Shown here: positions 1 through 61,640 of the stretch, piece by piece
Position numbering within the stretch: position 1 is the first letter of the stretch
Layout: every line of letters begins with the position of its first letter
DNA from: Takakia lepidozioides
Taxonomy: Eukaryota > Plantae > Bryophyta
NCBI GenBank assembly: GCA_030704615.1
Contig: CM060733.1
Coordinates: 28,148,001-28,212,000 of the forward strand
Direction of reading: 5' to 3'
Length of the DNA stretch: 64,000 bases
The notes under the pieces: generated by a model
What the model saw: the letters and a program-made list of their open reading frames with translations, nothing else
Told to the model about the DNA's origin: nothing
Databases searched by the model: none
Made by a program: the position numbers and the translations under genes

Positions 1-3000
1 AGCAAAGAAAGCCAGACTATGAGTAGACAAATCACGATCGAACAGAAAAGAAAGGTTCAAGCTCTCAAGAAATGTCTAGGAGTCTGCCAAAAAAAGATTG
101 AAACCGCTTCCTGTGATGAGCATACCTTCCATACTTACCTTGAAGCACGCCAAGAACTTGAATCCTATCAATTCCTTCAAGAACAGAGAATGCAAATGCA
201 GGCGGGAATAAATTGGTCGGCCAAAGGCGAGAAAACGTCCAAGTATTTCTTTGAGAAAGTCAAACTACGCAAATCTCTTCAAAGATACAAGAATTTTACT
301 CGGACAACCAGGGCCACTCCACCTCAAATCCTAGGGCTATGTGCAGTCTTGCATTCTCCCACTTTCAGAAACTCTTCCAGGAAGACACCAAAGACCCCTT
401 GCACCATTCCAAATTGCAGGCATGCTTGCAAGTAGTGCCCCGCAAACTTCAACCAAAAGAATTCTCTTATCTAGGGGAGGACTTCACGGGTATGGAGCTT
501 CAGGATGCACTGAACAAGATGAACAATAACAAAGCACCTGGCATCGATGGCATGCCAGTGGAGTTCTACAAAGCCCTCTGGTCACACATTGCGGTTGACT
601 TTGCTGCTCTGGCTAATGCAATTAAAGCCCAGGGCCTGATGCCTCCTTCAATGTCCCATGGAGTCATTTCACTCTTGTTCAAAAAGGGCGACAGAGCTAG
701 CATAAACAACTACAGGCCAATCACACTCCTCAATGTAGCATACAAGATAATTGCCAAAGCTCCGGCTCTTCGTATCCAGCCCCTTCTCCCTCAGCTTATC
801 AGGACAGGACAGGCTGGTTTTATTAAAGGCCGAAGGTACATTCTTGACAACATCCTTTTGGCTCAAGAAGCCTCCTCATATGCTTCCAGAAACAACCAGG
901 CCCTGGCCCTATGGTTGCTAGATTTTGAGAAAGCCTTCGACAAGGTAGATTGGACCTTCCTGCTGGTGGTTCTTCGAAAGACAGGCATCCCAGAAAACTT
1001 TTGTCAATGGGTTCAAATCCTTCTATACCAATCCACTAGCAGAGTCATGGTCAATGGCCATCTCTCCGCTCCTTTTTCTCTCCACAGGTCAGTTAGACAA
1101 GGACGCCCGTTGTCTCCCTTTCTTTTCTTGTTTGTGGCTGACACCCTAGGTTACCTGCTGGACTCTGAAGCTTCGGTGCAAGGCCTCAGGATAAAAAAAA
1201 CCCTAGGTCTGGGCTCCAAATCCAAGTAAAAGACTCTATGTTTGTTGACGATACATTTTTACTACTTGATGCCACCCCCAACACCCTATAGGCAGCCCAT
1301 GATACATTAACCTAGTTCTGTGAGGTCTCCGGCTTCAGGGTCAACTGGAGTAAGACCAATGCAATCTTGGTGGGAGACCTCGCACAATCGGAAATAGGCG
1401 ATAACCCCTCATGGGGGGCTGAAATAGGTCTAATATGGCTGGCATCGGGCGAGTCAACAACACTGCTGGGATACGCTTTTGGTAAAGACCTTACAGAGAA
1501 CCAAAGAATGGGGCCCATTCTAGCCATGCTCAAGAGAAAATTAACTTACCGGGGATCACGCTTTCTCTCCATTACAGGAAGAGCTTTGGTGGCAAACCAA
1601 GTGCTCGAGGCAGGCATTTGGTACTTTGCCTCCACTTGGGGCCTGGATTCGTTGTTCCTAAACGAGGTTAAAAGATGCGTGAGAAACTTCATTTGGGAGC
1701 AAACTGTTCAACACAGAACAAAAGACCCCAGGTGTCATGGAGGCAAATTGCCTCCCAAAGAAGAGGGGGGGTTTAGGTATCTTGGACCCAGAAATGCAAA
1801 TCCACGCTTTGCTGGGCAAATGGCTGCCCAGATTTCTAGGGCCCGAAGGCGGGTGGTGGAAGCTTCTGGTGGAAGAAAACATAGCATTTACCTCACCTCT
1901 CCTGAGCACTCACTGGAAACAATCCACCGGGTGGATAACCCAGGGATTCAATCACAAATCAGTGGGATCGCCTTTATGGAAATCTATTTGGAAAGCCTGG
2001 AAAAGATTTAGGCCATTTCTGCTCAAGTCGGAGCCTGCCACCTTCCAAGAAACAATGAGGCAACATCTTTTCCTTAATACATCAAATCCAACCCCTCTAG
2101 AGAGAGCACAAGCTAGACGATGGGTAGCATGGGAAACGAGAGGTTTCTCGCAAGTAACTCACTTATGGGACAGCAACCCGGATTCCCTTAGGATGGCGCT
2201 GGGTCAAAACAGGCTGGTAGCTGGAATCCAAACCATCATCCGCTCTATCCCAGATCAATGGAAGACAATCCTACGGGGTGGCAAGGAAATCCATAAAGAA
2301 CATCAATGGGTCAATTCCATCAACCAACCTTTTTCGGTGATGTATGTGATAGCAGCCACACAGACATCGCTCTCAGGCTATGGGTTCCTGGCAGACTCCT
2401 TCTCGGGCTTCCTTTCACTTTTCTCTACTCAACCCCAATCCCTGGACAGTTCACAGGCCACCCCAGTTAGAATCTGCCATTGGTCTGGCAAGGAGAAAGA
2501 GTTCAACCCTTCGGCTCCCTTGGACAAACCGATAATGCATTGGATTCAAGCCAACTCTTTCACCCGAATAGGAAATGGGCAGATCCAAGATCTTCCAATC
2601 GACCCTGGTGAATGGGAGTGGAACTTAGATGGGGCTTGCTCTAAGTTCTTCTCCTACTCAACCAAGAATGCATACAGATCTCTCATCAAAGCAACAGGTC
2701 TAACTGCAAAGTGGAATGACAAATGGAATTTGGAGGGTTTCGATGAAGAGAATTGGGATATTATATGGGGCCTGGTCTGGGAAAAAACAAAACCAACAAA
2801 GCTCAGTGCTTTCCTGTGGCAAATCACCAACAGGGTCTTTAAGGTTGGGCAATTCCCAATCCTAAACGTCCAGGAGGCCTTTCTTTGTACTTGCTGCCAC
2901 ATTGGAATTATAGAAACGATGGAGCACTGCCTAATTTCTTGCCAGGGACCAACCCTCATTTGGCCATATATTGTCACATTTTATGCAGGTTGGGGCCCTC

Positions 3001-3939
3001 TCCCTGCAGGCAGAGTAGAGTTACTCCCGAACTACAACAAGCAATCTAAATCAGTTGCGAACCACTCGGGCCGCCTAACAAAACATCTGCCCAGTTTTTG
3101 AAACCCTGAGAGGAGCCACTCTATGGCAATTGTGGAAAGCTAGAAGCTCCTGGTCTATGCAACATCTTAACTCAACTGTATCTGCTGTGCTTACGAGGAT
3201 CTTCTTTGAACTCACTGTAGCAGCTAAGTTGGCATGGAAAAAAGTCTGTGCAGGCATTACCAGGAAGCCAGAACGAGAACAGGCTCTCTTGCAGCAGTTC
3301 AATTCCACCTGGGGGAGAGGGGATCTCATCTGCTCCTGCAGGGGTCCTGACTCCTGTGTCTGGCCTCGGCAAATCCCCTCTCAATGGAGGGGACACCGAA
3401 CCCTCCTCTTCCGCTTCCCCAAAGTTTGACAAAACGGACATCAACTGGAAGCATGTGAGGACCTCCACGAAGACCAGGCTGGACTACAGCTCCTAAATTC
3501 CACAGCACAGGCTCTACCACATTAAATCTATAGGCTCTTGTTCAGGTTATCTGGTGTATCAAAACCCCTCGATCATTTAGACTCGTAGTTTCATACCTCG
3601 TAGTCTAGTGTGTATCTGACCTTCGAGATATCTCTAGGTTGTGTCACTCTAGTTGACGTCATTGCTCTAAGTCTCCTCACGGAGCCAGACTACACTTCTT
3701 TAGCTCAGCTAATCGTATTACTTTGACTCAAAACACAGGGCCAGGTCTCACTTGTTTAGCTTAGCTAATCGTATTGCTCTTCGGGATATCCGTTACGTTT
3801 ACTGTGAGACAAGCCTAATGGCGGCCAAAGGCCAACCAAGGGTTTTAATTTTTTTCCCTTTAATAATCTCAATAAAATTCGACTACAGGGCACCGTTCCC
3901 TACTCTCCCCCCTGAAAAAAAAAAAAAAAAAAAAAAAAA
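1..3939 (+). mobile_element. L1/Tx1-type LINE (LINE-A): ORF2 to poly(A) tail, degenerate, 5' part outside window
   Basis: Frameshifted ORFs 19-435, 339-1229, 1367-2011, 1737-3101 and 3130-3429 contain non-LTR RT motifs (KAPGIDG, NYRPITLLN, LDFEKAFDKV, VRQGxPLSP, FVDD) and a C-terminal zf-RVT-like CTCC..ETMEHCLISC. AATAAA at 3871-3876; A25 at 3915-3939. Confidence 0.93.
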
Positions 3940-6260: not shown

Positions 6261-6647
6261 AGTCCTCCTATAGTGTCCATTTTTTGCTGTCACAACACTG
6301 TTTTTTCTAGACATAGAATATTGGTAAATTATCATATTCCTACATGACAATGCCATCAATAAAAATGGACTAATATATAGAGGCTCATCTACATATACTT
6401 TCACACTTTTAAATCTCATTATCAAAAACCAGAATCTGTAGATGCTATGGACTTTTAAAAAGTCCATAAGGAATTGTCACAGTCCATAAAAAAGACGTTA
6501 TGGACTTTTTTAATATAGGAGTTAGAACAAAGTCAAGAAAATGGACTCTCTCAACCTTGCTTTGGAGAATGAGGAATCTGGAAGGAAAAATATCATTAAA
6601 AAATATGAAGTTAAAAAAAAATTATATACTATATTGAGCCTAAAAAA

Positions 6648-7018
6648 TGTTGGAATTCGACAGAGAATAGAGATAAAAGATGAATTGATTACTGAGAACT
6701 CTCCACCCAACCATAGGACCACAACAAGCTGTGTGTCCACCCTCCGAGCTCTCCATATTTATACTCAAAGTCTAATCCAGAAATAGCTGAGATAACTATA
6801 ACATAACTCCATGCTTTTACTTAAGTTATCTCCACTTGCTATTCTGGTACAATGACTTGAGTCACTAATAACTAAAGCTAACTTTAACTATCTTTTAGTT
6901 AACTGAGGCTTATCTCTATTGTTAACTGTGACTTGTCAGCATTGCTATTACGGAAGCCTGACTTGTCATCACAGTAACTTTAGGTAGTAGTAACTTGGTC
7001 AGGAATTGATTTCCAACA
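6648..7018 (-). repeat. Copia 3' LTR (371 bp)
   Basis: Direct repeat of 21972-22327 (about 16 substitutions and one ~15-bp indel, counted by eye); TG...CA ends. Confidence 0.95.
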
Positions 7019-7700
7019 CCCCCACTCAACGAGTTACCAAGTTAAGCACTTGACTACTCCCATTAAGCCTCGAAAGCGTTCAAGCTTTTCAGCACTAAGC
7101 CCTTTTGCCAGTATGTCTGCAACCATGTTGTTGGTGTTGCAATATACAAGCTTGACAACTCCAGCTTCAGTCTTCTCTGACAGAGCCTGATCAATACATG
7201 ATCACATGATCTCTTTCAGAGCCACCATCTCAAACCTCTTTGAGATATCACTTTGTTTTTCTCAACAAAGCAATACATGATCATAGGATCTCTTTCAGAT
7301 CCACCATCTCAAACTTCATTGAGATATCGCTTTGTCTTTTTCAACAAAGCCTGATCAATACATGATCATGATCTTTTTCAGATCCACTATTTCAAACTCC
7401 TTTGAGATATTACTCTGTATGTGTTTCAACAAAGCCAAGTCATTAAAGACCAAAATCAGATTATCAACGTACAGTGTTATGATCACAAAAGAGTTTCCAT
7501 GAGCTATCTTATAGTAAACACTATAATCAGCAGAATTCCTCTCAAACTCTTCAGCCATGAAATATGCATCAATCTTAGCATTCCATGCCCTAGGGGATTA
7601 CTTCAAACCATACAAGGACTTGATGAGCTTACACACCTCTTTTTTTTTACAGCAAATCCCTCCGGCTGGTCCATGTATATTTTTTCCATAAGATCTCCAT

Positions 7701-7787
7701 TGTCGTGCGCATACGTATCGCTACACAACTACATCGTTGTCCAAACCACACCACACATATATGCACAATAAAGTAGTCTGCCACAAT
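7701..7787 (-). repeat. Gypsy terminal repeat A (outer copy, 87 bp)
   Basis: Matches 8146-8232 with 2 mismatches. Confidence 0.93.
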
Positions 7788-8143
7788 TGATAGAACAAGC
7801 TAAGAGACACACTGTTCACACCAGAAACAACATGAAATCCATCGCTATCACTCGTTAAAACAGAAGTCGAGCTAGGGGCACCCCAAGCTATGGGGACTCT
7901 ACCCCACAACAACCTATACTCCCATCATAAGCACACTCAGTCCTAAATGATGCAGGAGCTCGGTCGCGCAGGCTCAACTTGAGAGAGATGAGCTGCGCGA
8001 CTGCTGCTCTCGTGAAGATAAGGCGGTTCAGGTATCAAACTAAACTTGACACCTGACTTAACACTTGACCTAAATCCAAGTGTTAAATACAAATAACTAG
8101 CTTTATTCTAGTTGTTTTCACATTGTGCTTATTTAACTTGACA
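7788..8143 (-). repeat. Gypsy terminal repeat B (3' copy, 356 bp)
   Basis: Matches 19514-19869 with about 13 substitutions, nearly all transitions. Confidence 0.95.
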
Positions 8144-8145
8144 GC

Positions 8146-8232
8146 TGTCGTGCGCATACGTATCGCTACACAACTACATCGCTGTCCAAACCACACCACA
8201 CATGTATGCACAATAAAGTAGTCTGCCACAAT
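8146..8232 (-). repeat. Gypsy terminal repeat A (inner copy, directly after the PPT)
   Basis: Matches 7701-7787. Preceded on the minus strand by the PPT-like TAGGGGGGCG (8242-8233). Confidence 0.93.
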
Positions 8233-8480
8233 CGCCCCCCTAGCTGGTGGGTAGGTCCTTCTACCTCCAGATAGCTACAAGATGTAATAGCCACAGCCGT
8301 ACTAAGTCCTCCCTATTGCACTCAAACTCTATAGACCAAGAGGCCGAGTACAAGAGTAGCCCCATCGTTAGTCGCCATCTTGCAATCTGTGAACTTGAGC
8401 CAAGACCTCGTGTGTTCAAGGTCTCATAGTAGCTGGGCCTTGCGTTTCTTGTTAGTTTTCCATGGTTGTATCCACTCCCA

Positions 8481-10175
8481 CTATCTAATGCAATGTGGAC
8501 ATAACCAATCCCCATCTGGAACCATCTCAAGAGGTGGAGTCAAGCATCCCATATGCCAACCTCTAGAGCATCGATCGTACACCAGCATGGTGGCTGCCCC
8601 TCTAGCAGACCCACACAACATGCACCTCAAACCTGCAGATACCACTGCCAAGTTTGGGTCTATCCTGCCATCGACATTCGGAAGGTGACATGGTGCACAA
8701 TTACACACATGGTCCTTCCAAGTTATGCCATCCCGACCCTCCAAGACCAAGACGCCTGAGGGCAAGACCTCTCGAACCCTCAAAATAACACGTCCTACAG
8801 TCACATCCAAGGTCGTAGGAGCAGTCTGCTGCAGATAGACGTAGTCACCAGGGTTGAATCTCCGAACCCCAGGACAATAGCCCCCACCACGTATGGTAGC
8901 ATACCTCAACGTATCACGGTGTTGTGCAATGGCAAGGTTCTCAAAAGCCATTGGCATGACTTTCTTGAACAACTCTGCACGCTGCTCACATGCACGTGCC
9001 CACACATCCGGATCGTCAAGGTTAAGAACTGTACCAGCTTCTCTGCGAATGGATGTAGGCAAATCCGGCTCTCGGCCAAAGAGAAAAAAGTATAGTGAGA
9101 AGGAGGCAAGTGATGCTTGCTTGCTGAACCTGTAGCCCATGGCTAACCAGGGTAACTGAAGGTCCCAATCTCCTAGGTGTCCCTTCTGCAAGCCATACTT
9201 GCGCAAACCCCTCTTTACTGTCTGAACAATTCTCTCTGCCAAGCCATCGGCTTCAGGATGATCCCGAGAAGTGGTGCGGTGGTCTATCAAGGCCTTGTCA
9301 CACAAAGCCTGAAATTCCCCCAAGAACTCTCTCCCTTGGTCCGTGAGTACCTCAGCTGGAGCACCGAATCAGCTAAGCACACAATCCAAGAATGCATACG
9401 CAGCTCTCTCACTAGCCTTATCAGGCAATGGAACCAATTCAATCCACTTGGAGAAGTGCTCCACCATCACCAACACGTACTTGTTGTGGCGCATGGTCAG
9501 TGGCAACGGCCCTGCGAAGTCAAGACTCCACCTGTAGCCCAATCCCATGATCGGAAGAGGGTGCAATTGTGGAGTAGGGGCGTTGAATGAAGCACGCACC
9601 CTGTCACACACCATGCACCTAGCCACAAATTGTTGCACCTCTGAGTGCATACCACACCACCAATACTGCCCCTGCAGTAGACTATAAGTGCGTCGCACCC
9701 CAAAATGCTCCAACTCCTCATGGGCATGCCGCACTAACCGTGCCCGCTGTGTTGGGTGAGGCACAATCCTCACTCGACCATCCTCCCACACTCGGAGCAG
9801 GTGTGTCCCCTCCCACTTGAACCTCTTGGCTCGTTGTAGGATCCAATCCCTCTCCTTGGCAGTCATAGTGGCTGCAGTGTCTCCAGTGCGGAGGTAGTCT
9901 AACACAACTGAATCCTCATGTATATCTTTGGCGCCACCTTGCTCATTGCTGGCCTTAGGGTCCTCAGACACTTGATCTACAGTCATCCCTGTTGCAGGTC
10001 CAACCTGGCCTTCCGCTGCCAAGATACACAGAAATGCAGATGCATGCCATCCGGGGACCATCTCCTCGTCCGTCTCACCATGCCACCGAGCTCCAGTGTC
10101 ATCCTGCTGGCTCGTGCATGGATTGCGACTCAACCCATCTGCATTGCGATTGACCAAACCCGGTCGATGCACCAC
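8481..10175 (-). pseudogene. Gypsy integrase with C-terminal PHD finger (one in-frame stop)
   Basis: Zinc finger H-x4-H...CMVC; catalytic D (WSLDFAGP), D (VLTDQGREF), E (GLAERIVQT). C-terminus CMLC...YDRC..WHMGCLTPPL..VPDGDWLCPHC. Stop at 9369-9371. Confidence 0.93.
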
Positions 10176-10208
10176 CTGAAAGTCATACTCTTGAAGGATG
10201 AGTGCCCA

Positions 10209-11501
10209 TCATGCAAGCTTCCCCGTAAGCTTGTCTGACTCCATCAACCACTTGAGTGGTTGGTGATCCGTGACAAGGGTGAAGAGATTGCCGTATAGAT
10301 AGCACCTGAAGTGTGCCACGGCCCACACTGCAGCTAAGCATTCTCCCTCATATGAGCTATACTTAGACTCAGCAGCATTGTTCGAGCGGCTAGCGTAAGC
10401 CACTACGAACTCTCTTCCCTCATCATCCACCTGTGTGAGCACCGCTCCAAGCCCCAGCATGCTCCAATCTGTATGCAGCTGAAAAGGACGCCCCCTGATA
10501 GGTCGTCTCAAGATGGGCGCCGAGGTCAACCTCGCCTTGAGCTCTTGAAAAGCTTGTTCTTGCTCATCTTCCCACTGCCACTCCTGGTCCACCTTGGTCA
10601 GCTTGGTTAGAGCCTTTGCAATGGCACTAAATCCCTTAACAAACCGTCTGTAATAGTTTGCTAACCCCATGAAAGCTCGAACTCGGCTCATATCCGTGGG
10701 GCGTGGAACCTGTGCAATGGACTCTACCTTAGTCCGCTGTACCCCCAATCCTCCAGGATATATCATGTGACCCAGATACTCAATCTGGTTGTGGAAAAAC
10801 TTGCACTTTCCTGGATGTAACTTCAATCCGTGCGTCCTCAAGCACTCAAATACCCCCTGAAGGTGTCTCTCATGCTCATCCACCGTAGCACTAAAGATGA
10901 TGATGTCATCTATGTAACACCGAGCAAACTCCACCCCTGCTAGAATCTTGTCCATGACCCTTTGAAACTCAGCAGGAGCGTTTTTAAGCCCAAATGGTAA
11001 GAACCGCCACTGGTATAGGCAATCCTTCCCATGCTCATTGATCCCCCAGAATGCCGTCTTTTGCTTATCCGCCTCCTTGATCGGCAACTGGTGATATCCA
11101 GATCGTAAATCCAACGTGCTAAAGACCTTGGAATGCCCAATGGCATCAAAGATCTCCTCTGGTGTCGGCATGGCATACCTATCGGACTTGGTCTGACGAT
11201 TTACAGGCCGGTAATCACCGCACATACGTCTCTCCGTCCTATTGCCATAGACATCCTTCTTGGCTGGCATCACTGTGGCTGAAGCATACTCTCCACCAGA
11301 GAGCTCCACCAAACCTGCCTCCCAAAGATCCTGAGTTCTCATCTGAATCAAGGACCTCTCCATGTCATTGTATCTATAGGGTCTCCGAAAGATTGGCGTG
11401 TCAGTAGCCAATTCAATGCGAATCTCTTGACCCTTCAGTGCTCCCAAGTCCTTCAAACTGAAGGCAAAGCAATTCCTGTAAGCCCTCAGGAACCGCCGCA
11501 T
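10209..11501 (-). pseudogene. Gypsy reverse transcriptase and RNase H
   Basis: RMCGDYRPVN, STLDLRSGYHQ, LPFGLKNAPA, YIDD; RNase H LHTDWS / GECLAAVWA / VTDH. Confidence 0.96.
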
Positions 11502-11939
11502 ACGTCGTCTCTCTCCTCCGGTGACAATGGGTCCAATATCAGGCTCCCAATTGTCCTCCGTAACTGCAACCTTAAGTCCAGTGGGCTTAGAGGTAGAGGA
11601 CGTGTCCCGTGGTTGCTATGCTGCAACCTCTTGAGCAGTACTCCCTTCCTGCTCAGTCAATGACAAGGCCTCATCCCGCCCCATCATCTAATGATTGAGA
11701 ACCTCCTCAACCCGAGAAGAATCCCCAACCTCATCCATCACAGCTGCCTTGGCTGCCAACTCCCTCTGGACCTCGAGCACCTCCCACGTGTGCCATGGAT
11801 GTCTACACCCCGTGGTCCTCACCGGCTCGCCCCCACTCGCTGCCTGTACCGTCTCGGTAGGCAGAGAGACCGTCAAGGGAAGTGCACTCCGCACTCTACG
11901 TTGCTCAGCCATAGCCAAGCTGATAATCCAGGTCAAGCA

Positions 11940-12870
11940 ATTGAGATCCATTGCTTGCCCCAACACCTGACGACGTGATGCCGCAGAAAGAGAAGGCACC
12001 GCCGTGGTCCCAATGGAAAACCCCATAGCCCGCTCTCGCTCGTCGGCATTAGGCTCCACTAACTGTTGCAACTGAGCATCCCACAGGAGGCCAGGTCCAC
12101 CATCCCGAAAAGCATGGGATCCTGGGAAGCTGAGCAGTGTAGGTAATGCTGCTCGTGGTTGACCCACCCTGTTGACCACTGCCAAAGGCGAACGGTCATC
12201 GTGTCTCACACGTTGACACTGCCTCCCTGTGTCCAAAATGTTGTCCACTATGAGGTGTGTTGGCCGCTGCACCCCATCAAATGCACGCTTGAGCAGTGCG
12301 GGTGGCATCAAGTTAGTCCACCATAGCCGTGGACGATGAGCTCATGATCCTACTGCAGCTGCATCCAGCAGGTGCTGACCCAAGCCACGACCGGACTTGA
12401 TGCACACAGGCCATCACCCTGGCCCGAGAATCGCCCATCAGTGGCACATTCTCCAAGATGTATGCTGGCGATACAGCTTGATGAAGCTGCAAGTGGCGCA
12501 AAATCCGCACCATCTCCCAAAACAGACCCGTCCTCGAGTCTCGCAATCCATTGCTATGCCCGGCTGATGAATGCCCTTGGCAGGGCCAACCTGCCACTAC
12601 CAGATCAATGGAGCCAACCTGCTCCAAATTCGGCGCCCCCAACAACGAAATGTCTGCTGGCAAGGCTTGTTGGTATCCACGAACTGCAGACACTGGCAAC
12701 AAAGCAGGGTACTGCTGTACCAACTGAGCAACATGGCGTAGTGAGACGTGTCGTGCAGTCTCATCCCTCTCCACATACAGGTAACGCCTTACCCGCACAC
12801 CTGCCTGTAGCACAGTAGCCAATCTGGTGCTGATCCCGCCAAACAAGTCCAGAAGGCAAATGTCTTCATC
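11940..12870 (-). pseudogene. C5-cytosine DNA methyltransferase domain (DNMT3-like) inside Gypsy pol
   Basis: Motif I LLDLFGGI, II YVE, III DI, IV GWPCQGHS (catalytic PC), V LRDSRTGLF, VI LENV. After a frameshift near 12375 and a TGA at 12342-12344: VIII AHRPRLWWTNL, IX ERERAMGF, X RRQVLGQAMD. Confidence 0.92.
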
Positions 12871-13260
12871 CGGATATTGCCACACAATAGGCGTGGTATC
12901 CAATGGAGACAACTGAGGTGGTCCTGGTGCAATACCCGCACTCTCCTCCTCTCCTGACAGTACAAAAGCCTCTACCCAGGCTTGTTGCACCTGTCGATCA
13001 GTAACCTGCTGCAAATCTTTGCTCGTACCCCACAATGGAGTGTGAGCAACCATGGCAGGCAATTCCGCCATACCATGCATGTCATCATGCTCTGCTGGAG
13101 GTGACACATCCTCTGCATGGGCATTGCCTTCCAGCAACTCTCCAGGCCAACTAATTGCAGCTGTAAAGGCGGCTAGTGTTGGCATCTTGCCCCGTTGGGC
13201 AGCTGCAATACCCCCAATGAATGTCACAGGGAGCTGTGCACGACGACCATCCCTTGACTG

Positions 13261-14367
13261 CTATCCAGGCTTGTAGAATGCTGACTCCTCCCAAAAGTCC
13301 AGGGTGAAGCCCATGGGGTATAACACTGCCCCACCAACGAGGACATCGTAAGAGACCGCGTCTGTCACAATGGCCTTGGCTCGCATTACTAAGCCATCGA
13401 TAGGATGATCCGGCTGCAGTTTAATGGCCAACTGATGTTGTGTCATGCCCCGAGCCTGCTCTGATCCTCCCAGAGATGTCTGTATCTGGAAAGAACAAGG
13501 CTCCATATCCGCCTCCATGAGGCCCAAACTTGCAATAGCAGCTCTGCCCAACATCAGTGGCTGAGCTCCCGAGTCCAACAAGACCCGTAGTGGCCGGTAC
13601 TTCTTGCCTGCCGGTCCACTCAAAGAGAAAATGCCATCCTGGTTGTCTAACAAGACAACTCCAGGTGTCACCATGGCGCGCTCAAAGGCTGGCCTAGCTG
13701 GCAGCTCCGTCAACCTGGCAGCTGCAGCTTGCCATGGCGCAGCCGTGGCAGTCTTGACCCTCAAATCCGAGGATCCCTCTGCCACTACACCTTCCAGTAA
13801 CTCCGCAGAAGATGAAGTGACCTCCCCACTCTCACAGAGTGTTGCTGCTAGTCTGAACACTGCAGCTGGTCTTACCCCCGGCGTCGCAATCATGGTTGCC
13901 GAGAATAGTGGGGCTTGACACACAGAGGTGGCTGCCCCCAACAACACACCGGCTATACTAGCCTTGGCAGCAGGTGTCAGTGCTGCACGTGTAGCTCTCC
14001 CCAATGGCATAGAAACCTCCGCCTCGGTAACAGTCAGGCGAGAACTAGGTGCCATGGATGGCGTTGACACTGTCTCCGCCAAGGTGAATGACTGAGGCGG
14101 CCTCGCCTGACGGCTTGCGTCCCCACGTTGTGGATCCAACTCCACCTCTGCACCTCGTGGCTCAGGAACTCGTGCTGCTCCTCGAGTCACGGCTGCAGCA
14201 GACTCCACCTGCTCTAGTGGTAGTGCTGCTCCGCACATGAATCCCATGCCTCCCATATCTCCTCCCTCAGGAGCAGGAGGTGGACCATCCCGCCTGGGAG
14301 CCGGTACCGCCTGAGCTGTAGCCATGGCAGCGAGCCTCTGCTTTAGCTGCTGAAGCCGGTTGGCCAT
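13261..14367 (-). pseudogene. Gypsy gag-pol linker and aspartic protease
   Basis: VLLDSGAQ catalytic motif and YDVLVGGAVL C-terminal motif. Confidence 0.88.
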
Positions 14368-15802
14368 GCCTTGATCAATACCCTGACCTCCACGTCCTTG
14401 GCCATATTGAGCTTGCCCTTGGCCTGCACCTCGTGCCCGACCACCTCGTCTCTCTGGGCTGGTCCACCTTGCCCCCGGCCACCATTGTTCCCTTGGAACT
14501 GGCCTGGGCGCAACTCAGGATGCAAGTCATAACACTGGGCATCTCCATGCCCATACTTGCCACAATGCCCACACTGCAACTGTGCAGGCTGTGTTTGTGC
14601 CGGCCTTTTGCCACTCTCTGGGCAATCTCTCTTGACATGGGGTCCTCCACATGTCCAATATATCACCCCTGGTTGCTGTTGGCCTGCAAAAGATGCCACG
14701 GGCCTCTGCACCTGAGGTCCCCTGTAAGCTCCATGGAACTTGGGTTGGGAAACCTTGTCCCCCTGACCACGCTGTTGGGCTGTTCCTTGTGCCTGTGGGC
14801 TGGTAGCTGCGCCTCGTGCAGGCATGTCCTTGCCAAACCCAATGGTAACAACTCGCTCCTCCACCATGTTGAGCTCAATCCGCTCAGCCAGCAGAAACAC
14901 ATCTGTTAATGTGGGTGTAACAGGGTTGCATCCCGCACCCTTCTCCTGAGCTCCTTGTCCAAAATTCCATACCAGAACTGGATTGCCTGAGCTTTAGTAA
15001 CCCCTTGGGTCACACTTATCAAGCGCCTCATACGAGTGTAGGCCTCTCGCAAGCTCTCACCGGGTTTGCGCTGGAAGTCTTGCAAACTTCGCAGCTTCTC
15101 TGTCCGTACACCTTGGTAGTTCCTCCGCAACTCCTGGAAGAACTCCACCACCGGGTTGAATCTAGAGACATGTGTTGTAGTCGTGGCAGGAGGAGTAGTA
15201 GCACCTTTTGAACTGGTACCACCTGCAGAAGTACCGGCACTACTTGTTTCACTACTAGTGCTGGTAGTGGGAGATATTGGTACTGATGCAGCTACTGGTC
15301 GCGTCGTGCCTCGAGTAATGGAGACGTAGTCAGGTGACCAATACATCCTCCACTCCAATCTCTGCTTCATGTCCTCACCTGAACTCGTGGTAATCGTCCA
15401 TAGGCGGACCTTCCAAATGCTGGAACAGTCCTTTCCACGCCATGAATGGGGTGAATAGTTGTGGATTGCGCATCTGCTGCAAATCACACCAGCTGTCGAA
15501 CTCCTGGATAAAGTCATCCAACTCGATTGAGACACAGCTCCAGAGTACCTACGAGGCCTCTTGGTAGCTCCATACATCTCCTCCATGTCGTCCCACAACA
15601 ATGGCGAATGAAACTGCACACCTGTTGATGAAGCCTCCGAGTCTTTGTCTGACTCTGCACTAGTTGAGGGTGGAGGTGAAGGTGGTCTGAAACGAACACC
15701 TCGTCTGGTGAACCCACTCTCACTGCTACTACCTGTAGCCGTACTCCCCTTAGAACCCCTGGGTAACTCCGTGATGACACTCACAATGTGCACCTCCCCC
15801 AC
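14343..15802 (-). pseudogene. Gypsy gag (capsid-like region and two zinc knuckles), frameshifted
   Basis: LQDFQRKPGESLREAYTRM (major-homology-like); WTCGGPHVKRDC and CGHCGKYGHGDAQC knuckles. Confidence 0.85.
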
Positions 15803-16305
15803 GTGACACTATAAGGCTTTAGTACTAATTCTAATACGGGTAGGCACCTGTTGCAGTTTAAGGGTCATATCCCAGTGGCTCAGGGCACCTGCACCTGCAT
15901 CCACCGCAAGAACTCCTATGGTTGGCTGGTCATCAACCCAGCCTCACCATAGAAGAAACACTGGTGGTCTTGCTGGTCATCACTCCAGCCTCACCACCGA
16001 CAACATACTCTAGGATTGACCGGTGATCAAGTCCGGCCTAATCCCTATGAAAGCAAGCGCCCACACAAAACCCACAGTCAAGCATGCAGGTGTTGGGGGG
16101 GATCCAAACACAAGAAATCAAAACTCAACACCTCCACACCAAAATCCAGCTGCAATGCTGATCCTGCAGAATAGCCCAGTCCAAAACCCGGGACTGACTG
16201 GCCTCCACCAAGAGAGGCTTTGGCAACTACGAGTACAAGGTAATGAAAATAGTACAGAGATGGAGGGGAAGAATAGAAGCCCGCCCAAGCAAGATCTAAT
16301 CCTAT

Positions 16306-17055
16306 CTATGCTATCAACTGCCAGACTTCTCTCAAAGTGCCTTGCTCTGCATGATGGTAAGGTGTAGGAGGTATATCTATGTCCAGAAACCTGCCACTAA
16401 CCTTGTCCCAAGCTACAGTAGCTCGCTCTAACCAACCCTCCTCCTCTTTCTGCCAGGTAGAGACAAAGCAATACTCCCCTATCTCCCGCTCACTGAACAC
16501 TAAAGAAAACAAAGGTATGGTCTGATAGTCTCTCAACTCGAAAGCTTTGAGATGGTTGCGGGTGTCCTCATTGCGAATGACTGCATCTCCTTTAAGCAAA
16601 ACAAACTTGTCATTGCTAATGAACCCCCGCTCGTGGTTGCCTTGTGCAGAGCGTATCCGGCTGCAACCATGTCTGATTGCACAAACTTGTGCAGCTCCTG
16701 CTCCTCTGCTCCAGTACACCACGGCCTTGTGGCTGAACACCTTGGTCCATGGGGCTGTCTTTGGTTGTGTTCCAAGCCTAGCTTTCACCCACTTTGGTAT
16801 TTCACCTACAGCTGCAGAACTGCTGGCTCCAACAGAGTTCTGACTATCCAAAGCAACATTGAGGCCCTCAACGCCAACTACAGCAGTTTGTTGTCTACTG
16901 CTAATGCCTGACTCCCAGTATGCAATCAACTCATCCAACTGTTCTCCACTCAAATCAGTCTGAGTTCCTTGGGAAACATAAATCATGTCCCCTTGTGTGC
17001 ACAGGCTAAGAGACGAGACCTGCCCTTCAATTACGTCCTCATTTCCCCCAGCCAT
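16306..17055 (-). CDS. Extra ORF of unknown function upstream of gag in the Gypsy element (249 aa)
   Basis: ATG-initiated, stop-free 750-bp ORF, sense to the element, with a globular-looking C-terminal half. Confidence 0.55.
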   Translation of the reverse strand: MAGGNEDVIEGQVSSLSLCTQGDMIYVSQGTQTDLSGEQLDELIAYWESGISSRQQTAVVGVEGLNVALDSQNSVGASSSAAVGEIPKWVKARLGTQPKTAPWTKVFSHKAVVYWSRGAGAAQVCAIRHGCSRIRSAQGNHERGFISNDKFVLLKGDAVIRNEDTRNHLKAFELRDYQTIPLFSLVFSEREIGEYCFVSTWQKEEEGWLERATVAWDKVSGRFLDIDIPPTPYHHAEQGTLREVWQLIA

Positions 17056-17325
17056 ACAAGGAGAACATCCATAGATTTGTCTCTCATATAGACCAGAACA
17101 GGTTCTAGAAACAGAATTGTGGATCTTTCATGGCACACTCACACTCTAAAAATTCCATAGATTTTTAGCAGAGTCCCAAAAATAAAAAAACCACGTCTAG
17201 AGAGGTAGATATCCCCTTTCTGCAGCTATTCCCTCAAGAACTGAGTCAAACGGAGCTCATTTGACAAAGATATGACCAACCAGGCTCTTTAAACATAACA
17301 CATTTTCATTTTTTTTTTCATTTTT

Positions 17326-17332
<7 letters not shown>

Positions 17333-17362
<30 letters not shown>
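17333..17362. repeat. (TA)n microsatellite in the Gypsy leader
   Basis: About 15 TA units seen directly. Confidence 0.9.
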
Positions 17363-17364
<2 letters not shown>

Positions 17365-19499
17365 ACAAAACAAATACAAGGAAAACTCTATTTTCAATAC
17401 TTGTCTTGGTTCCCTGTTCCTTGGTTTCTTGTTCCCTAGTTCCCACTGACTGGCTCTCCTCCAGTCGAGATCCGTAGCTATGCTGAGCCTTAATCCTTTG
17501 CACCAATATTCCCAACAAAAGCAGGAACACTTACAATGCAACCCCGGAAAGCACCAGATCGGAAATATCTGATCGGCTCAGCACTATAGTGCCAGGGGCA
17601 CATAAACCAGATTGTAGGAGCAGCCAGAGGAAATGCAGGTTATGCCAGCATCATCCAGACCATCCCTGCATCTTGGATATGCATCCTCCAGCAAGGGCCA
17701 TTGCCTCCATTGCCCGACACTTGGTTACATGCTCAGCCAAACCTAATCAGGTCATTTCCGTGACAGATTTCAGCGGCATTCAAATCACTGGCCTCGCTAT
17801 GCACTGCTGCCCTCAATCAAACATCTTGCAAAGCTGGCTGTCTTTCTCTGGCAGATCGCAAATAGAATTCTAAAGGTAGAGCGTTGGCTTCAATTCACCC
17901 GTGCACTGCTCTGCACATGCTGCTCGCTTGGGGTTTCAGAATCCCTGGAACACTGTCTACTGCAATGCAACATACCTTCAAAAAAAAATCTGACCCAAGA
18001 TTCACTGGCTGCTCAAACACTGGCATGACCAAACATCTTTAACTCCAATCAGCTTGCTACTAAATTACAATCCCAATGCCCAGTTGAGCTGCCAGTCTCG
18101 CATTCACTGTCCCCACCAAGGCAGCTGCATGAATACTATGAATACCATCACAGCTCCCATCTTCCACTCTAACCGGTTGGATGAGTACGGCCTTGAGGTC
18201 TGGTCAAGGCCACCAACTGCACCTGGGTTGTCCCAGTTCTCTGTTGCCCAGTTCGGGTCACCTTGCTGATCGTTGGTGTTTTCAAACGGGTTCATCCCAT
18301 ACACCAGACAAAGGGATAATCAGGAAAGTCTGGAGTTCAGAAGCTGATAGAGCTCATATTCCTGCACCAATTAAATGAATGTGGTATCTCGCACTAAGAC
18401 TCCCAGGACCAGCACCTGTGCAGAAGTAAGTACCCTTGACGCCGAAATGACAGTAGAGGCAAGTGATCAGTTGGAAGTGTTCAATGATGAGACAAGTAGA
18501 GCTGGAGCTCCCTTGACCTGTATCGCCACAATCCTGCACCAAGTCAGGAGGACTTGTGAGGACTTGGTCTTAAAGGAAGAACTTATCTTTCAACAATCAG
18601 AACCATTGGCGGGACGGAGGCGCAGTGTCAGATATATGGTGACAAACTTGGACTCGGGCAGTGTGCTGAGTTGAAAGCTGGGTTGTGAACCACCATTCGA
18701 CTTTCCACCAGTTTCCCCCTCAAAATGGTGGAACCAAGGTGCAAGGTAGCAACAACTACTTGGCTTTGTACAAACCTGAAGCACTTAAAAACGACTTTGC
18801 ACCTTGCACTCCCCGAAATCAACAATGCCCCCAACAACCCTTTTTGTCAGGAAGCTGGTTGCTTATGCAGATAATCGACCAGGTGAAAGCAGCTTTCCCA
18901 GACACAATCACAAGTAGCATGAAGATTTGTGAGACTCCTGGTTTTGCAGTGTTGATGATATGCCAACAATGGGCTCCCCGTTCTCCATCGCTTTGCTGCT
19001 AGGCTTTCTCTCTCGGGGCCTTCACCTTCAACCAGCTCGCTGCGCCATGCTCTACCTGCTGGCGCTGCATTTACTGGAGGGGCGGATTTACAGCTCTTCC
19101 TTCAACTGGCTCCACTACACCAGCTCCACCTGCTCTTCCGCTGCCTTTCCTGACCGCTTCTGGTCTGTGCACATCGAACTAAGGCGAGCAACCCGGCCAT
19201 CTCCAGGCACGGAAGTTCTACCCATTTGCTCGATCACAGGTACCCCTTTAAGTCTCGCACTTGGTCAGTTTCCCAACGGCCAATCGCTGCTACTCCATGA
19301 TGTCTCCTCACTGACCAAAACGAAGGCTGCTTCCATGCAGTGTAGCTCCGTCCTGCCCGGCGGCCTCATGCCAGAACCAACGCTGATCGAAACCTGCATA
19401 TATATATATTTTAAGCTTCTTAAATTATGCACTACTCTCACACAGGTAATCATACAAGTGCTAACCCTCAACTCCTACCTTGCACTCACAGGTAAGAGG

Positions 19500-19513
19500 T
19501 CATCTCTCTCGAG
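19500..19513 (-). promoter_or_regulatory. Self-priming primer-binding site
   Basis: Minus-strand CTCGAGAGAGATGA abuts the LTR end and is the exact complement of LTR positions 19717-19704. It lacks the TGG start of a tRNA PBS. Confidence 0.8.
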
Positions 19514-19869
19514 TGATAGAACAAGCTAAGAGACACATTGTTCATACCAGAAACAACATGAAATCCATCGCTATCACTCGTTAAAACAGAAGTCGAGCCA
19601 GGGGCACCCCAAGCTATGGGGACTCCACCCCACAACAACCTATACTCCCATCATAAGCACACTTAGTCCTAAACGATGCAGGAGCTCGGTCGCGCAGGCT
19701 CAACTCGAGAGAGATGAGTTGTGCGACTGCCGCTCTCGTGAAGATAAGGCGGTTCATGTGTCAAACTAAACTTGACACCTGACTTAACACTTGACCTAAA
19801 TCCAAGTGTTAAATACAAATAACTAGCTTTATTCTAGTTGTTTTCACACTGTGCTTATTTAACTTGACA
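19514..19869 (-). repeat. Gypsy terminal repeat B (5' copy)
   Basis: Matches 7788-8143; minus strand reads TGTCAAG...CTATCA. Confidence 0.95.
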
Positions 19870-21734
19870 CCATTGAGAAAGGCTGTACATTCATCTATCT
19901 GATGTACCTCAAGATTTTCAACAACAACAAACGCTAGAATCACTCGAATTGACTCCATCCGTGCAACATGGGAGAAGGTTTCATTGTAATCAATACATTC
20001 AATTTGCGAAAACCCCTTTGCAACCAAACGCGCTTTGTACCTTGCTACAGAACCATTTGCATTGTACTTAATCTTGAAAATCCATTTGCAGCCAACAGAC
20101 TGCCGTCCAGATGGAAGTTGAACAAGACTCCAAGTCTTATTATCCTGAAGAGACTTAAACTCAGATGCCATAGCTTCCTTCCAGTGTGAAGAGTTCCCAC
20201 TCCTCATTGCATCTGACACACTTTGAGGTTCATCACTGTCAACGAAATAGGCAGAAGATACCTTTGAGGGTTTTTCAATCATAGTACATTGTACCTCCTC
20301 CATTTGAACCTCAACTATCTCTTCAACAATCTTCTCTTCCATGTTATCTTCATGAGTCAGAGCCAAGTTCTTTTTTTTCACGGTCCAAACTTGGAACTAC
20401 TTTTCTTGATGAAAGTTCCTAGACTCATTGAATATCACATCATGACTGATGATCATATACTTGCTCTCAGGGTTATACAACTTATACCCTTTGTTTTCCT
20501 TTCAATAACCAATGAAGATACACTTGATTGCTTTTGCATCCAATTTCTTCCTTATTTTTTTTGGAACATGGACAAATGCAACACACCCAAAGACGCGCAA
20601 ATGATCAACTGAAGGTTTTTCAAACCTCTTCAGGTATCTTTGTAGAGATTGCCTTAGTAGGAAGTCGATTCTGGAGGTATGCTGCAGTCGCCACTGGTTC
20701 TGCCCAGAAACGGTGATCCAACCTCATGTGTTGCAACACACACCTAACACTCTCAACAAGTGTTCGATTCTTCATCTCTGCAACTCCATTCTGTTCTGGC
20801 GTATATGGTGTGTTGATTGTTTTACAATACTATTCTCTCTGCAAAATTGGTTAAAGTTCTTTGAGATGTACTCACCACCACCATCACACCGAAGAGATTT
20901 GATATTTTCTCCAGTTTGATTCTCCACCAAAGCTTTGAATGCTTTGAACCTATCAAGAACTCCAAACTTGTTTTGCATCGTGTAGAGAAATATTTTCCTG
21001 GGAAAATCATCAATGAAGGTCAAGAAATACTTTGTACCTCCGCAAGATTCAGTTGACATAGGACCGCATAGATCTGTATGAACCAGCTCAAGAACCTTAT
21101 TTGTTCGAGAACCTCCATCTTTTGGAAATGAGTTGCGATGGTGTTTACCGTACACACATCCGTCACAAAAACTCAAGATCCGATCTCCTGTAAGATCTAT
21201 GCCATTAACCAGATTGTTAACTGACATGCATGCCAAACTTTGCATTGAAACATGTCCAAGTCTCTGATGCCAGAGGTCACTCTACTTGAGCGTAGTAGTA
21301 CACTCCGCATGTAAAGCCTGGACAACCCCCACTAGCTTGTACAATCTTGCATCTTTCACTGCCTCAGCTATCATTTCACTGTCAAACTTCACCCAACAAT
21401 GATTGATAGAAAATTCAACCGTAAGACCTTGCTCAGTTAGCTGACTAACTGACAATAGGTTCTTTGTCAATCCAGGAACAAAGAGAACTCCCCCGATCTC
21501 CTTCGACACTCCAGATGATAATTGAAACACAACAGTATCTTTTCCATGGATATCAAGACTAGTACTGCTGTCTCTAAAATACACTTTGTGTCCCACAGAG
21601 AGTTCTCTGAAGGTTGAGAATGCTTCATTCTGGAACGTTATGTGCTGAGATGCCCCTGAATCAATGAACCATGCATCTCTGCAACTCGTAGAGATTGACA
21701 AAGCTACAACAAAAAATTCAGTCCTTTCAGCCAA
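19870..21734 (-). pseudogene. Copia pol remnant (protease, integrase, N-terminal RT)
   Basis: ORFs 21282-21734, 20772-21245 and 19809-20381. RT continues at 7700-7355 on the other side of the Gypsy insertion. Confidence 0.92.
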
Positions 21735-21971
21735 TGCTGAAACCTCATTTTGTTTTTTTTGTTTTTCTCATCGTCTAGCTTTTTCTTGAAGCAGTCACGT
21801 GCATATAAGTGACCATCTAACTTCTCCATTCGGATATGATCAGCAGAAGGTGCCATGATACTAGTTTGATGTTTTGCCAACTATAAAACACCCTCAAACT
21901 TTCAGATCTAACTCCAAGCACTCAAGCTTTCAGATCTGACATCAAGTACTCAACTCCAAGCTCTAATACCA

Positions 21972-22327
21972 TGTTGGAATTCGACAGAGAGTAGAGGTAA
22001 AAAATGAACTGATTACTGAGAACTCTCCACCCAACCATAGGACCACAACAAGCTGTGTGTCCACCCTCTGAGCTCTCCATATTTATACTCAAAGTCTAAT
22101 CCAGAAATAGTTGAGATAACTATAGCATAACTCCATGCTTTTACTTAAGTTATCTCCACATGCTATTCTGGTACAATGAACTGAAGCTAACTTTAGCTAT
22201 CTTTTAGTTAACTGAGGCTTATTTCTATTGTTAACTGTGACTTGTCAGCATTGCTATTATCGAAGCGTGACTTGTCATCACAGTAACTCTAGGTAGTAGT
22301 AACTTGGTCAGGAGTTGATTTCCAACA
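21972..22327 (-). repeat. Copia 5' LTR (356 bp)
   Basis: Direct repeat of 6648-7018, adjacent to the PBS. Confidence 0.95.
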
Positions 22328-25900: not shown

Positions 25901-27240
25901 GACCCCAAAGAATGGTCTTGGAAAATAGCCAAAGCGCCAGAGCCCTTCTTTTCCTACACCACCAAAAAAGGATACCAAGCACTCTCCTTGTCAGACCCAC
26001 TATTAGACAAATGGAATGGAAAATGGAGACACCTAAACTTTGACAGGGAGAGCAGGGACACTATATGGAGAATCATTTGGAAGAAAAGCATGCTTGTTAA
26101 GCTATCGGCATTCTTGTGGCAAATAGCTAATAGGGTTTTGAAGGTGGGAGAATGGCTGGGATTCGATGATGCCCTCCACTGCAAATGTTGCTCGTTAGGA
26201 ATACTGGAATCGCAGGAGCGTCGTCTCTTGCATTGCGGGGCACCAGCGGTCATCTGGCCACACATTAAATCCTTCTATCGTTCCTGGGATGCCCAGCCAT
26301 TAGGGTCAATTTCCCTCCTGCTGAACTACGACTTAACTACCAAACAAAAAGCTAGCGGCTGCCCAGTTCTGGATACCCTCAGGACAGCCACTCTTTGGCA
26401 CATTTGGTGAGCTCGGTGTAAAAGAACCCTCAATGGAACGACATGCTCCATTTCTACTCTCCTCGCTGCCATTTACTATGATCTGCTGATAGAAGCAAGA
26501 AAAGCATGGATCAAGCTCTGTGCAGATTCTAAAAGAAACCCACGAAATGTAGGTAATTTGCACCACACCTTCGCAGCTACCTGGGCACATCAAGGAATCA
26601 TCTGCACCAGCTCCGCATCAGATCGCTGCGATTGGAACGACCAACCTCCGGCAAGTTGGTGCAATCTCAATTCACCAGTCCACAGCGTCGCCAGAGTATG
26701 ACAGGGACGTAAACTGGAAACATGTCAATGACGCCACCAGGCCATCCAGGCTCCACTTTCGTTGATGATTGAGCATACTGAGAAAGCACTAGAGTTGATA
26801 ACGCAGAAATCGTATAGTGCAGGAGCCCTAGGCTCAAGGCTACAGCTAGCCATATATTGTCTTTATGAGAAATCTTTGCTCGGTTTACAATGAGCAGCTA
26901 GATTTGCTATTACTCCGCAGGGAGTTGGCAGGTTCTTGATATCACTGACATCGGTGTGTGTGCCTCATGGCGTAATCGAGGGTTTAACATGCTGGGTGTG
27001 TGCAGGCAAGAATCAAATTGTATGTGTCTTGCAACTTTGACAAGAATCAGGAAACAGCTGCAACAGTCTCTCAAAAACCTGGAGACAACTTGAAAGCCAA
27101 AGAACCTTTCCCAACACAAACTAATGTGACAACTTGTAATCATCCAGAGCTCTAAATATCACTCTTTCCCTCTAATAACTCTAATAAAATTTCAACCCAT
27201 GGCGCTGAACCCTGTTTCTGTGAATATATATATATATATG
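22920..27240 (+). mobile_element. LINE-B ORF2 (C-terminal part of APE endonuclease, RT, zf-RVT) and 3' UTR, degenerate
   Basis: FTWTN..ARLDRF, NYRPITLLN, LDFEKAFD, VRQGCPLSP, FVDD, CKCC..ESQERRLLHC; stop at 26699-26701. AATAAA near 27184, followed by (TA)n at ~27223-27239. Homologous to but diverged from LINE-A. Confidence 0.92.
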
Positions 27241-31324: not shown

Positions 31325-34948
<3,624 letters not shown>

Positions 34949-61541: not shown

Positions 61542-61640
61542 GAGAGAGAGAGAGAGAGAATACTTACTCTGAAGACGTTTGCCGCAGCCTTGTAGCCATA
61601 GACCGCACACAGAACAAGAGGGAGAGAGAGAGAGAGAGAA
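61542..61640 (-). repeat. Short 3'-end copy of the (CT)n-tailed LINE between two GA tracts
   Basis: Reverse complement GGTCTATGGCTACAAGGCTGCGGCAAACGTCTT...TATT(CT)n. Confidence 0.65.

Follow-up and report, generated by a model that had tools for sequence, protein, structure and literature searches.

A DNMT3-like cytosine methyltransferase domain at the end of the Gag-protease frame of a decayed split-repeat Ty3/Gypsy element in Takakia lepidozioides

Introduction

Hosts defend themselves against transposons chiefly by methylation, and since 2018 it has been asked what makes retrotransposons retain DNMT3 domains. In that year, de Mendoza et al. described KnitGypsy-Dnmt3 of Klebsormidium nitens, and Gypsy elements with a DNMT3 have been a known kind since then (PMC5890265). 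According to the text and the legend of Fig. 4c of that paper, which we compared here in place of its domain-order figure, this element combines Gypsy domains and DIRS-type repeats with an intronless, unrearranged Dnmt3-type domain under purifying selection; it is described as Klebsormidium-specific and has its methyltransferase inside the Pol ORF. This earlier sole Gypsy case thus came from an alga, and its domain gave no methylation in yeast, a result that the authors call inconclusive; self-methylation of the cDNA was already proposed in their Discussion (PMC5890265). The same text presents SymbioDIRS-Dnmt3 of Symbiodinium, a tyrosine-recombinase DIRS element with an unrelated reverse transcriptase (RT) and without DDE integrase, which has a Dnmt3-type domain, repeats in the order A-coding-B-A-B and de novo CG methylation activity in yeast.

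Other features of relevance here are known from separate systems. The available text of PMC6681497 gives the repeat order A1 ... B1-A2-B2 for Ngaro, PAT-like and VIPER elements, which use a tyrosine recombinase. In-frame stop codons that divide a polyprotein are known from SIRE1, Tca2 and MuLV (PMC2194720), and UAG followed by CAR YYA is the readthrough consensus of TMV, with values of 9-32% for viral contexts in a plant reporter (PMC2754532). EpiLTRs and DAM-LTRs are LTR-type elements with DNA methyltransferases and a chromatin reader, in their case DAM, a sister of DNMT4 and a chromodomain (bioRxiv 10.64898/2026.05.21.726589); the main texts of this preprint and of PMC12344493, as distinct from their supplements, speak of "streptophytes" only. 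On the host side, plant DNMT3s carry a DUF3444 domain (PMC6453930), and five DNMTs are listed for Marchantia in the text of PMC5784723, with DNMT3 not among them.

Here, we analysed a stretch of 64,000 nucleotides of the T. lepidozioides genome (called the window below) in which a methyltransferase domain had been noticed inside a retrotransposon. New here are the range of the element family in land plants including a model organism, the layout around a candidate leaky stop, and the integrase-type handling of split repeats. Neither land-plant members nor the leaky stop are described in the literature that we searched, including the accessible text of PMC10952607, PMC9033089, PMC6673714 and 10.1101/2021.11.30.470311, though subscription papers, Repbase, figures and supplements could hold such a description; the words "PHD", "methyltransferase" and "Marchantia" are likewise absent from the text of PMC6317226.

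Organization of the element

The element occupies 12,169 bp of the minus strand (19869-7701) and is nested in the RT of a host Copia element. Its features, in the direction of its reading frames, are as follows:

19870..19873, minus strand: 4-bp target-site duplication ATGG, 5' side, adjoining the interruption of the Copia RT
19514..19869, minus strand: repeat A1 (356 bp), starting with TGTCA as the 5' end of the element, with no TGG-type primer-binding site after it
15809..19513, minus strand: long 5' region, 3.7 kb against about 1.1 kb in moss-type relatives
16306..17127, minus strand: open frame of 273 codons in the 5' region
14499..15715, minus strand: gag with zinc-knuckle-like Cys/His motifs (Retrotrans_gag E 0.002), frameshifted here
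13261..13700, minus strand: aspartic protease (LLDSGA; E 0.005, below cut-off), with a premature stop after it
11925..12873, minus strand: DNMT3-like C5-cytosine methyltransferase domain in linear motif order, with a frameshift at 12373/12371, a stop at 12344 and an altered motif I residue
11610..11618, minus strand: conserved in-frame stop TAG followed by CAA CCA (CARYYA context), end of ORF1 (Gag-PR-DNMT)
10100..11615, minus strand: RT (YIDD) and RNase H, with a premature stop at 10211
8640..9950, minus strand: DDE integrase with H2C2 zinc finger, with a premature stop at 9371
8481..8636, minus strand: C-terminal PHD finger (closest solved structures CHD4, KDM5A/B PHD1, ATXR5, PHF12 and PHF21A)
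8233..8241, minus strand: G-tract AGGGGGGCG, putative polypurine tract directly before B1, also in relatives
8146..8232, minus strand: repeat B1 (87 bp), ending CACGACA
8140..8149, no strand: palindromic internal junction GACA-GC-TGTC, the right end of the element joined to its left end
7788..8143, minus strand: repeat A2, differing from A1 at 13 of 356 positions
7701..7787, minus strand: repeat B2, 3' end of the element, ending GACA, 2 differences from B1 in 87 bp
7697..7700, minus strand: 4-bp target-site duplication ATGG, 3' side

The domain order gag-PR-DNMT-RT-RH-IN-PHD is common to the window and related loci. Leaving the methyltransferase and the PHD finger aside, the order gag-PR-RT-RH-IN, the DDE integrase, the TG..CA termini (starting TGTC and ending GACA) and the 4-bp target-site duplication are those of Ty3/Gypsy elements, and the RT of Ty3 is the best PDB match for one relative (P0009). 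The 5' region is ~2.5 kb longer in the window than in moss-type relatives, and the 273-codon frame within it has no match in Pfam, the 80 related loci or the atlas. Among the closest solved relatives of the PHD finger, CHD4, KDM5, PHF12 and PHF21A presumably prefer unmodified H3K4.

The methyltransferase domain

Translated from the minus strand, the domain begins with motif I (LDLFGG.., L at 12852) followed by YVERD, has GWPCQG with the Cys at 12582 and ILENV with the Glu at 12453, and continues in its C-half with AHRPRLWWTNL (12341), ERERAMGF and RRQVLGQAMD (11975) in linear order. By the numbering from I to X that we assume for these motifs, it comprises motifs I, IV (PC), VI (ENV), VIII (RxR), IX and X of C5-cytosine methyltransferases, and the DNA_methylase profile of Pfam matches it with E=3.9e-13. 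The original prediction had placed such motifs, including PCQ and ENV, between protease and RT, had proposed the Pfam search and had read the order of AHRPRLWWTNL and RRQVLG as linear, unlike the permuted order of DRM; the translation, the Pfam match and, for the motif order, also the ranking of PDB profiles agree with all of this. Its count of one frameshift and one stop holds for the domain proper but missed the altered motif I residue, which is found in none of 78 related loci, and it does not extend to the whole copy, which has 3 frame changes relative to intact natural relatives and 5 premature stops (13263, 12344, 11690, 10211 and 9371). The window element is a dead, broadly decayed copy. 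One correction concerns the location: instead of lying inside pol as first thought, the domain forms the C-terminus of the Gag-PR ORF, ahead of a conserved stop.

Assignment to DNMT3, as originally suggested, is borne out by a PDB search with a profile of 7 relatives, which ranks DNMT3A first (E 2e-11) followed by DNMT3B/C, against E 6e-6 or weaker for DRM-type enzymes and 1e-3 or weaker for bacterial enzymes (HaeIII/HhaI) and DNMT2. Motifs I to X are colinear with DNMT3A in the profile alignment. An AlphaFold model of the intact relative P0003 (pLDDT 90, pTM 0.89) has DNMT3A as its best Foldseek match (E 1.5e-18, TM 0.84 by target), only DNMT3A/B/C structures appear among the matches listed, and the predicted fold resembles that of DNA-bound DNMT3. 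By profile and by predicted fold, the closest solved proteins are thus DNMT3, not DRM, DNMT1/CMT, DNMT2 or bacterial enzymes. A DRM identity was rejected based on the unpermuted motif order and the weaker profile scores. We also rejected a host plant DNMT3 gene (such genes have reportedly been named in Marchantia since the list of five DNMTs), because the domain is intronless, lies within the element and lacks DUF3444, which was sought in 26 relatives and found in 0/26. A scan of IMG/VR returned only distant phage-type C5-methyltransferases of 23-34% identity.

The catalytic Cys is kept in 79/80 related loci and the Glu in 73/80. RxR is conserved in land-plant-type loci and in all 35 distant proteins, 31 of which also have an ENV-like motif. 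Many distant algal element-borne domains have GWECQ at motif IV where others have GWPCQ.

Split repeats and integrase-type ends

The original prediction had assumed a pair of LTRs, and this part did not survive: the repeats are split direct repeats in the DIRS-like order A1 - coding - B1 - GC - A2 - B2, with a palindromic junction and no primer-binding site. A TGG within 6 nt of the end of A1 is absent in 5/5 elements, and a G-tract precedes B1. The conventional layout of two full LTRs with tRNA primer-binding site and polypurine tract was therefore discarded on account of the split repeats and the missing primer-binding site. Over the 443 sites of the A and B pairs there are 15 differences (K2P 0.035), all but one being transitions.

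The same layout is found in six metagenome loci (L013, L039, L060, L064, L065 and L069), and the junction motif in 8 of the 22 loci having enough 3' sequence; GACA-GC-TGTC is identical in the window, in L013 and in L074, a distant locus with just 48% identity to the query in its methyltransferase. Four of six full-length elements are flanked by exact 4-bp duplications, with one mismatch in another and a degenerate duplication in the last. About ten loci stop at B1 without A2-B2 (L015, L019, L022, L023, L024, L025, L029/L078, L041, L050 and L063), and among the four B1-ended loci with both ends three have an exact 4-bp duplication and one a single mismatch; such copies fit either use of the internal junction by the integrase or recombination between B1 and B2. 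No B repeat stands before the 5' A repeat in 25 loci (26 rows, one locus twice), which lends no support to a simple circle that has two equivalent junctions, and a search of the loci for a permuted B-A-coding form found none.

These elements share their repeat order with Ngaro, PAT-like and VIPER elements but differ from those tyrosine-recombinase elements, as described in the text of PMC6681497, in having a DDE integrase, TG..CA termini and 4-bp duplications. The open frames of the window element yielded no tyrosine recombinase, and a decayed one in the 5' region is possible. Split-repeat ends without primer-binding site that nonetheless generate integrase-type duplications point to a little-studied replication route, and programs that look for two LTRs would miss such elements.

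A conserved stop codon between methyltransferase and RT

Among 80 loci examined, 28 had no RT-start motif within 700 nt and 2 no C-half of the DNMT; in all of the remaining 50 (42 distinct insertions after duplicate removal), the nearest in-frame stop upstream of the RT start is TAG (33) or TAA (17) followed by CAA or CAG. Decay stops taken as control (n=745) are followed by CAR in 24 cases and by CARYYA in one. In sister contigs from three organisms, 11610-11618 is without variant among the rows listed, and the stop at 11690 differs in nearly all. Kept in 50/50 loci and in the sister contigs, the stop at 11618 is not a product of decay. Protein models agree with this boundary: in the intact relative P0382 (1329 aa) a single frame leads from gag through DNMT up to this position, which is also where models from Marchantia and Calypogeia end, and the four closest RT relatives (RT-IN-PHD, 1033-1083 aa) begin at or shortly before the RT.

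A TMV-type site, with UAG and CAR YYA in frame, is present in the window and in five of the 50 loci (full CARYYA in L019, L028, L074, L075 and L076). It seems likely that RT and integrase are made by readthrough, since ORF1 (Gag-PR-DNMT) ends at a conserved stop in CARYYA context. A second TAG-CAG-TCA at 13263, which also fits CARYYA, was considered as a readthrough site, but relatives run through it and we treat it as decay. Compared to the stops of TMV, SIRE1, Tca2 and MuLV, as far as the texts of PMC2754532 and PMC2194720 describe them, this one lies after protease and methyltransferase, so that the enzyme would share the abundance of Gag; the predicted stoichiometry is an enzyme at Gag level with RT and integrase as minor products. 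Distant relatives (P0106, P0228, P0235 and Closterium proteins) continue from DNMT into RT without a stop and keep their DNMT, so the stop is not needed for retention of the domain.

Relatives and distribution

A search with the N-half yielded 50 longer proteins of up to 75% identity that match gag, protease, DNMT and RT of the window in order; 23 of them carry organism names, namely Marchantia polymorpha (19), Calypogeia fissa (3) and Sphagnum troendelagicum (1). RT lies downstream of DNMT in 54/80 loci, with short contigs or deleted copies making up the remainder, and single contigs from public sequencing runs of two other organisms cover the stretch from DNMT through RT (X10 8226-13172; X11 10234-12955). 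In run X1, which may be the window's own sample, 89,102 contigs fall on the element. The methyltransferase has the same position in sister copies of three organisms, in Marchantia models and in metagenome loci. The domain is therefore not a one-off capture, and its occurrence in land plants, for which the original prediction had cited the neighbouring genes, extends to Marchantia, Calypogeia and Sphagnum. Judged by these matches, the family is abundant in plants, with named relatives in liverworts and one moss, and bryophyte gene models annotated as DNA methyltransferase may be these elements.

A wider search gave 2344 representatives at E<=0.001, with organism names including Closterium, Scenedesmus, Mesostigma, Coleochaete scutata, Klebsormidium nitens and Tetraselmis. 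Many of the 60 long representatives scanned are Gypsy polyproteins with the DNMT either before the RT or between RNase H and integrase, and a few are Copia-type or bear DAM. Kinship to the Klebsormidium kind had also been anticipated, and Gypsy domains, Dnmt3 domain and DIRS-type repeats are indeed shared with it. By contrast to KnitGypsy-Dnmt3, which the text of PMC5890265 describes as Klebsormidium-specific and with the DNMT inside the Pol ORF, the window family lives in land plants and its clade has the domain at the end of the Gag-PR ORF1, before a conserved CARYYA stop. The window family further has a PHD finger on the integrase, a 4-bp target-site duplication and a palindromic junction, and the word PHD is absent from the text of PMC5890265. 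EpiLTRs and DAM-LTRs, as presented in the text of bioRxiv 10.64898/2026.05.21.726589, differ in their set of domains, the window element having a DNMT3-like domain and a PHD finger but no DAM.

Proteins with a DNMT3-like domain between RNase H and integrase, together with PHD (P0089, P0100, P0105, P0148, P0159, P0183 and others), constitute a second clade, which is one clade in both RT and DNMT trees and has Scenedesmus sp. as named member. The same domain type also occurs with Copia-type domains or with a DAM adenine methylase (P0140 from Closterium, P0196, P0119 and P0182; P0093 and P0170), and these cases may be further captures or chimeric gene models. An RT-IN protein of the window family (P0369, cluster of P0227) was deposited as uncultured cyanobacterium (CAA9586175.1), probably because a metagenome bin took up plant or algal DNA.

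Selection and history of the domain

By the Nei-Gojobori method, dN/dS of the DNMT between lineages ranges from 0.08 to 0.23, with dS mostly near saturation and several pairs saturated: we obtained 0.10 for L075/L076 (unsaturated, dS 0.29), 0.11 and 0.09 for L074 pairs, 0.16-0.17 for L028 pairs, and 0.08 and 0.23 for window pairs, next to 0.03-0.06 for the RT. By these values the domain is under purifying selection between lineages, and the dN/dS comparison proposed at the outset as a check on neutral evolution gives no support to it. A Ka/Ks of ~0.2 or less, as in the KnitGypsy-Dnmt3 kind, is seen between lineages and not within the large decayed moss-type family, where medians of 0.5-0.9 are due to post-insertion decay.

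RT and DNMT trees were built from proteins covering most of the respective domain, with near-duplicates dropped. In the RT tree (120 rows, SH-aLRT support only), L028, Marchantia and the moss-type family form a group with the window (support 97); it is nested in a clade of 16 rows that includes Coleochaete and L074 (support 100), and this clade lies in turn within a wider, weakly supported group of 56 rows including Closterium and Klebsormidium (SH-aLRT 89). Three K. nitens RT proteins in this wider group have no DNMT in the same protein and are at most candidates for KnitGypsy-Dnmt3. The DNMT tree (FastTree), composed only of element-borne domains and phage outgroups, has the same near neighbours and again a separate clade of domains after RNase H. 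RT and DNMT identities co-vary across 35 proteins with a Spearman coefficient of 0.65, a value inflated by related sequences, and none of 999 permutations was as high. The domain is a long-time passenger of the element, and a single origin with the Klebsormidium elements is plausible. Among the observations that would have spoken against the original prediction, we encountered neither absence of the domain from sister copies nor neutral evolution nor grouping with a host gene that has insertion boundaries of its own.

Proposed mechanism and alternatives

With moderate confidence, we read the window element as a decayed copy of an old green-plant Ty3/Gypsy element whose ORF1 would encode Gag, protease and DNMT3 ahead of a leaky UAG, and whose packaged enzyme would methylate the cDNA before integration. 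This reading builds on what the sequences display directly, i.e., the domain order, the conserved stop and its context, purifying selection, the split repeats and the 4-bp duplications. Since the UAG that closes ORF1 after the DNMT is probably leaky, the enzyme is likely made at Gag level and packaged. In bulk, ORF1 would be translated into Gag-protease-DNMT3, and a minority of ribosomes would read through UAG-CAR-YYA to add RT-RNaseH-integrase-PHD. The protease would free the DNMT inside the particle, where it would methylate cytosines of the nascent cDNA before integration. Lacking a tRNA primer site, both termini would be rebuilt from the internal B-GC-A junction, with plus-strand synthesis beginning at the G-tract that precedes B1 and the product being trimmed to TG..CA by the DDE integrase. 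The PHD finger may then tether integration to the tails of histone H3, probably those with an unmodified K4, and the new copy would arrive methylated, passing as host DNA or landing quietly in methylated chromatin.

Why such domains are kept can be tested directly since close relatives reside in Marchantia polymorpha, a genetic model for which both methylomes and methylation mutants are available. As a rather doubtful generalization, the elements could constitute an ancient, Viridiplantae-wide lineage of split-repeat elements without primer-binding site, abundant in bryophytes including Marchantia, in which a DDE integrase acting on ends regenerated from the palindromic junction, a leaky stop and a DNMT3 at Gag level would together send pre-methylated cDNA into chromatin selected by the PHD finger. 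Were this so, land-plant genomes would receive de novo methylation from an enzyme that their transposons encode.

The strongest alternative, unlikely in our view, is that the DNMT is active but works on chromosomal DNA after or apart from integration, be it in self-silencing, in silencing of competitors or as accidental methylation of the host. Its place in ORF1 would make the enzyme abundant in the cell and not only in particles, and isolated SymbioDIRS-Dnmt3 domains methylate chromosomal CG in yeast according to the text of PMC5890265. A cDNA-specific CpG footprint is not seen either: CpG depletion at codon junctions, a measure of little informative value here (0.29-0.43 in the element, 0.15-0.49 in the neighbouring Copia and LINE sequences, 0.44-0.55 in host genes), is no stronger in the element than in transposons or host genes nearby and gives no support to self-methylation. 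However, a one-frame fusion behind Gag and protease is a layout for loading particles, and the second clade has its domain between RNase H and integrase, again in a packaged polyprotein.

Less probable still is that the stop is the true end of ORF1 and that RT and integrase arise by reinitiation, splicing or an internal promoter, which would leave the role of the DNMT unchanged. In 45 of the 50 loci the sequence reads stop-CAA-CCC/CCT-ATG/GTG, with the YYA part broken and mostly an AUG right after the stop; reinitiation or a spliced or subgenomic RNA is thus possible there. As these 45 loci belong to a single family, no more than 4-5 independent lineages are represented; most loci of this large family have an ATG two codons past the stop after CAA CCC, not CARYYA. 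The stop is TAA in 17/50 loci, and the gag-pol stop of Candida Tca2 was not read through in a yeast reporter (text of PMC2194720). Yet CARYYA is found in the window, L028, L074, L075 and L076, all without an ATG directly after the stop, and lineages with nearly saturated synonymous sites still share the stop, its frame and the CAR.

We see very little room for a domain kept for nucleic-acid binding, a structural role or RNA methylation and not for DNA cytosine methylation. The inactivity of the KnitGypsy domain in yeast (reported in the text of PMC5890265) and the GWECQ of many distant algal members would fit this idea, but land-plant-type loci retain Cys, Glu and RxR, RxR and the ENV-like motif persist in distant members (35/35 and 31/35), and the modelled fold matches DNA-bound DNMT3. 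A one-off or neutral capture of a host DNMT3 fragment by the window copy, for which the broken state of this copy and the dN/dS of 0.5-0.9 among decayed family copies might be cited, is already refuted by the same position of the domain in sister copies of three organisms, Marchantia models and metagenome loci, by purifying selection between lineages and congruent RT and DNMT trees, and by the lack of DUF3444 in the 26 relatives scanned.

Neighbourhood of the element

The host Copia element extends over 6647-22327 (minus strand), with LTRs at 21971-22327 and 6647-7018 that are 92% identical with gaps, and a unit of 79 bp occurs in it three times in tandem (7192-7436). Further transposon remains on the plus strand (255-3100, 23194-26410 and 44017-44499) are two decayed RT regions of LINE type, which are 64% alike, and a fragment of a DDE_Tnp_1_7 transposase. 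Neighbouring genes on the plus strand encode an intron-split GH9 glucanase (31325-34945), a histone deacetylase (39605-41610), an O-methyltransferase (48634-50784) and an intact PPR-DYW protein (51590-53890). The named matches of the O-methyltransferase are all liverwort proteins (33-37%) and the atlas assignment is Streptophyta, in line with a seed-free land plant as the likely host. The PPR-DYW gene has 303-nt repeat units as well as a partial second DYW copy at 56528-56939. A dispersed non-coding repeat family (37917-41195, 59387-59856 and 61542-61604), with some copies in the histone deacetylase gene and one inverted, is possibly a small non-autonomous element.
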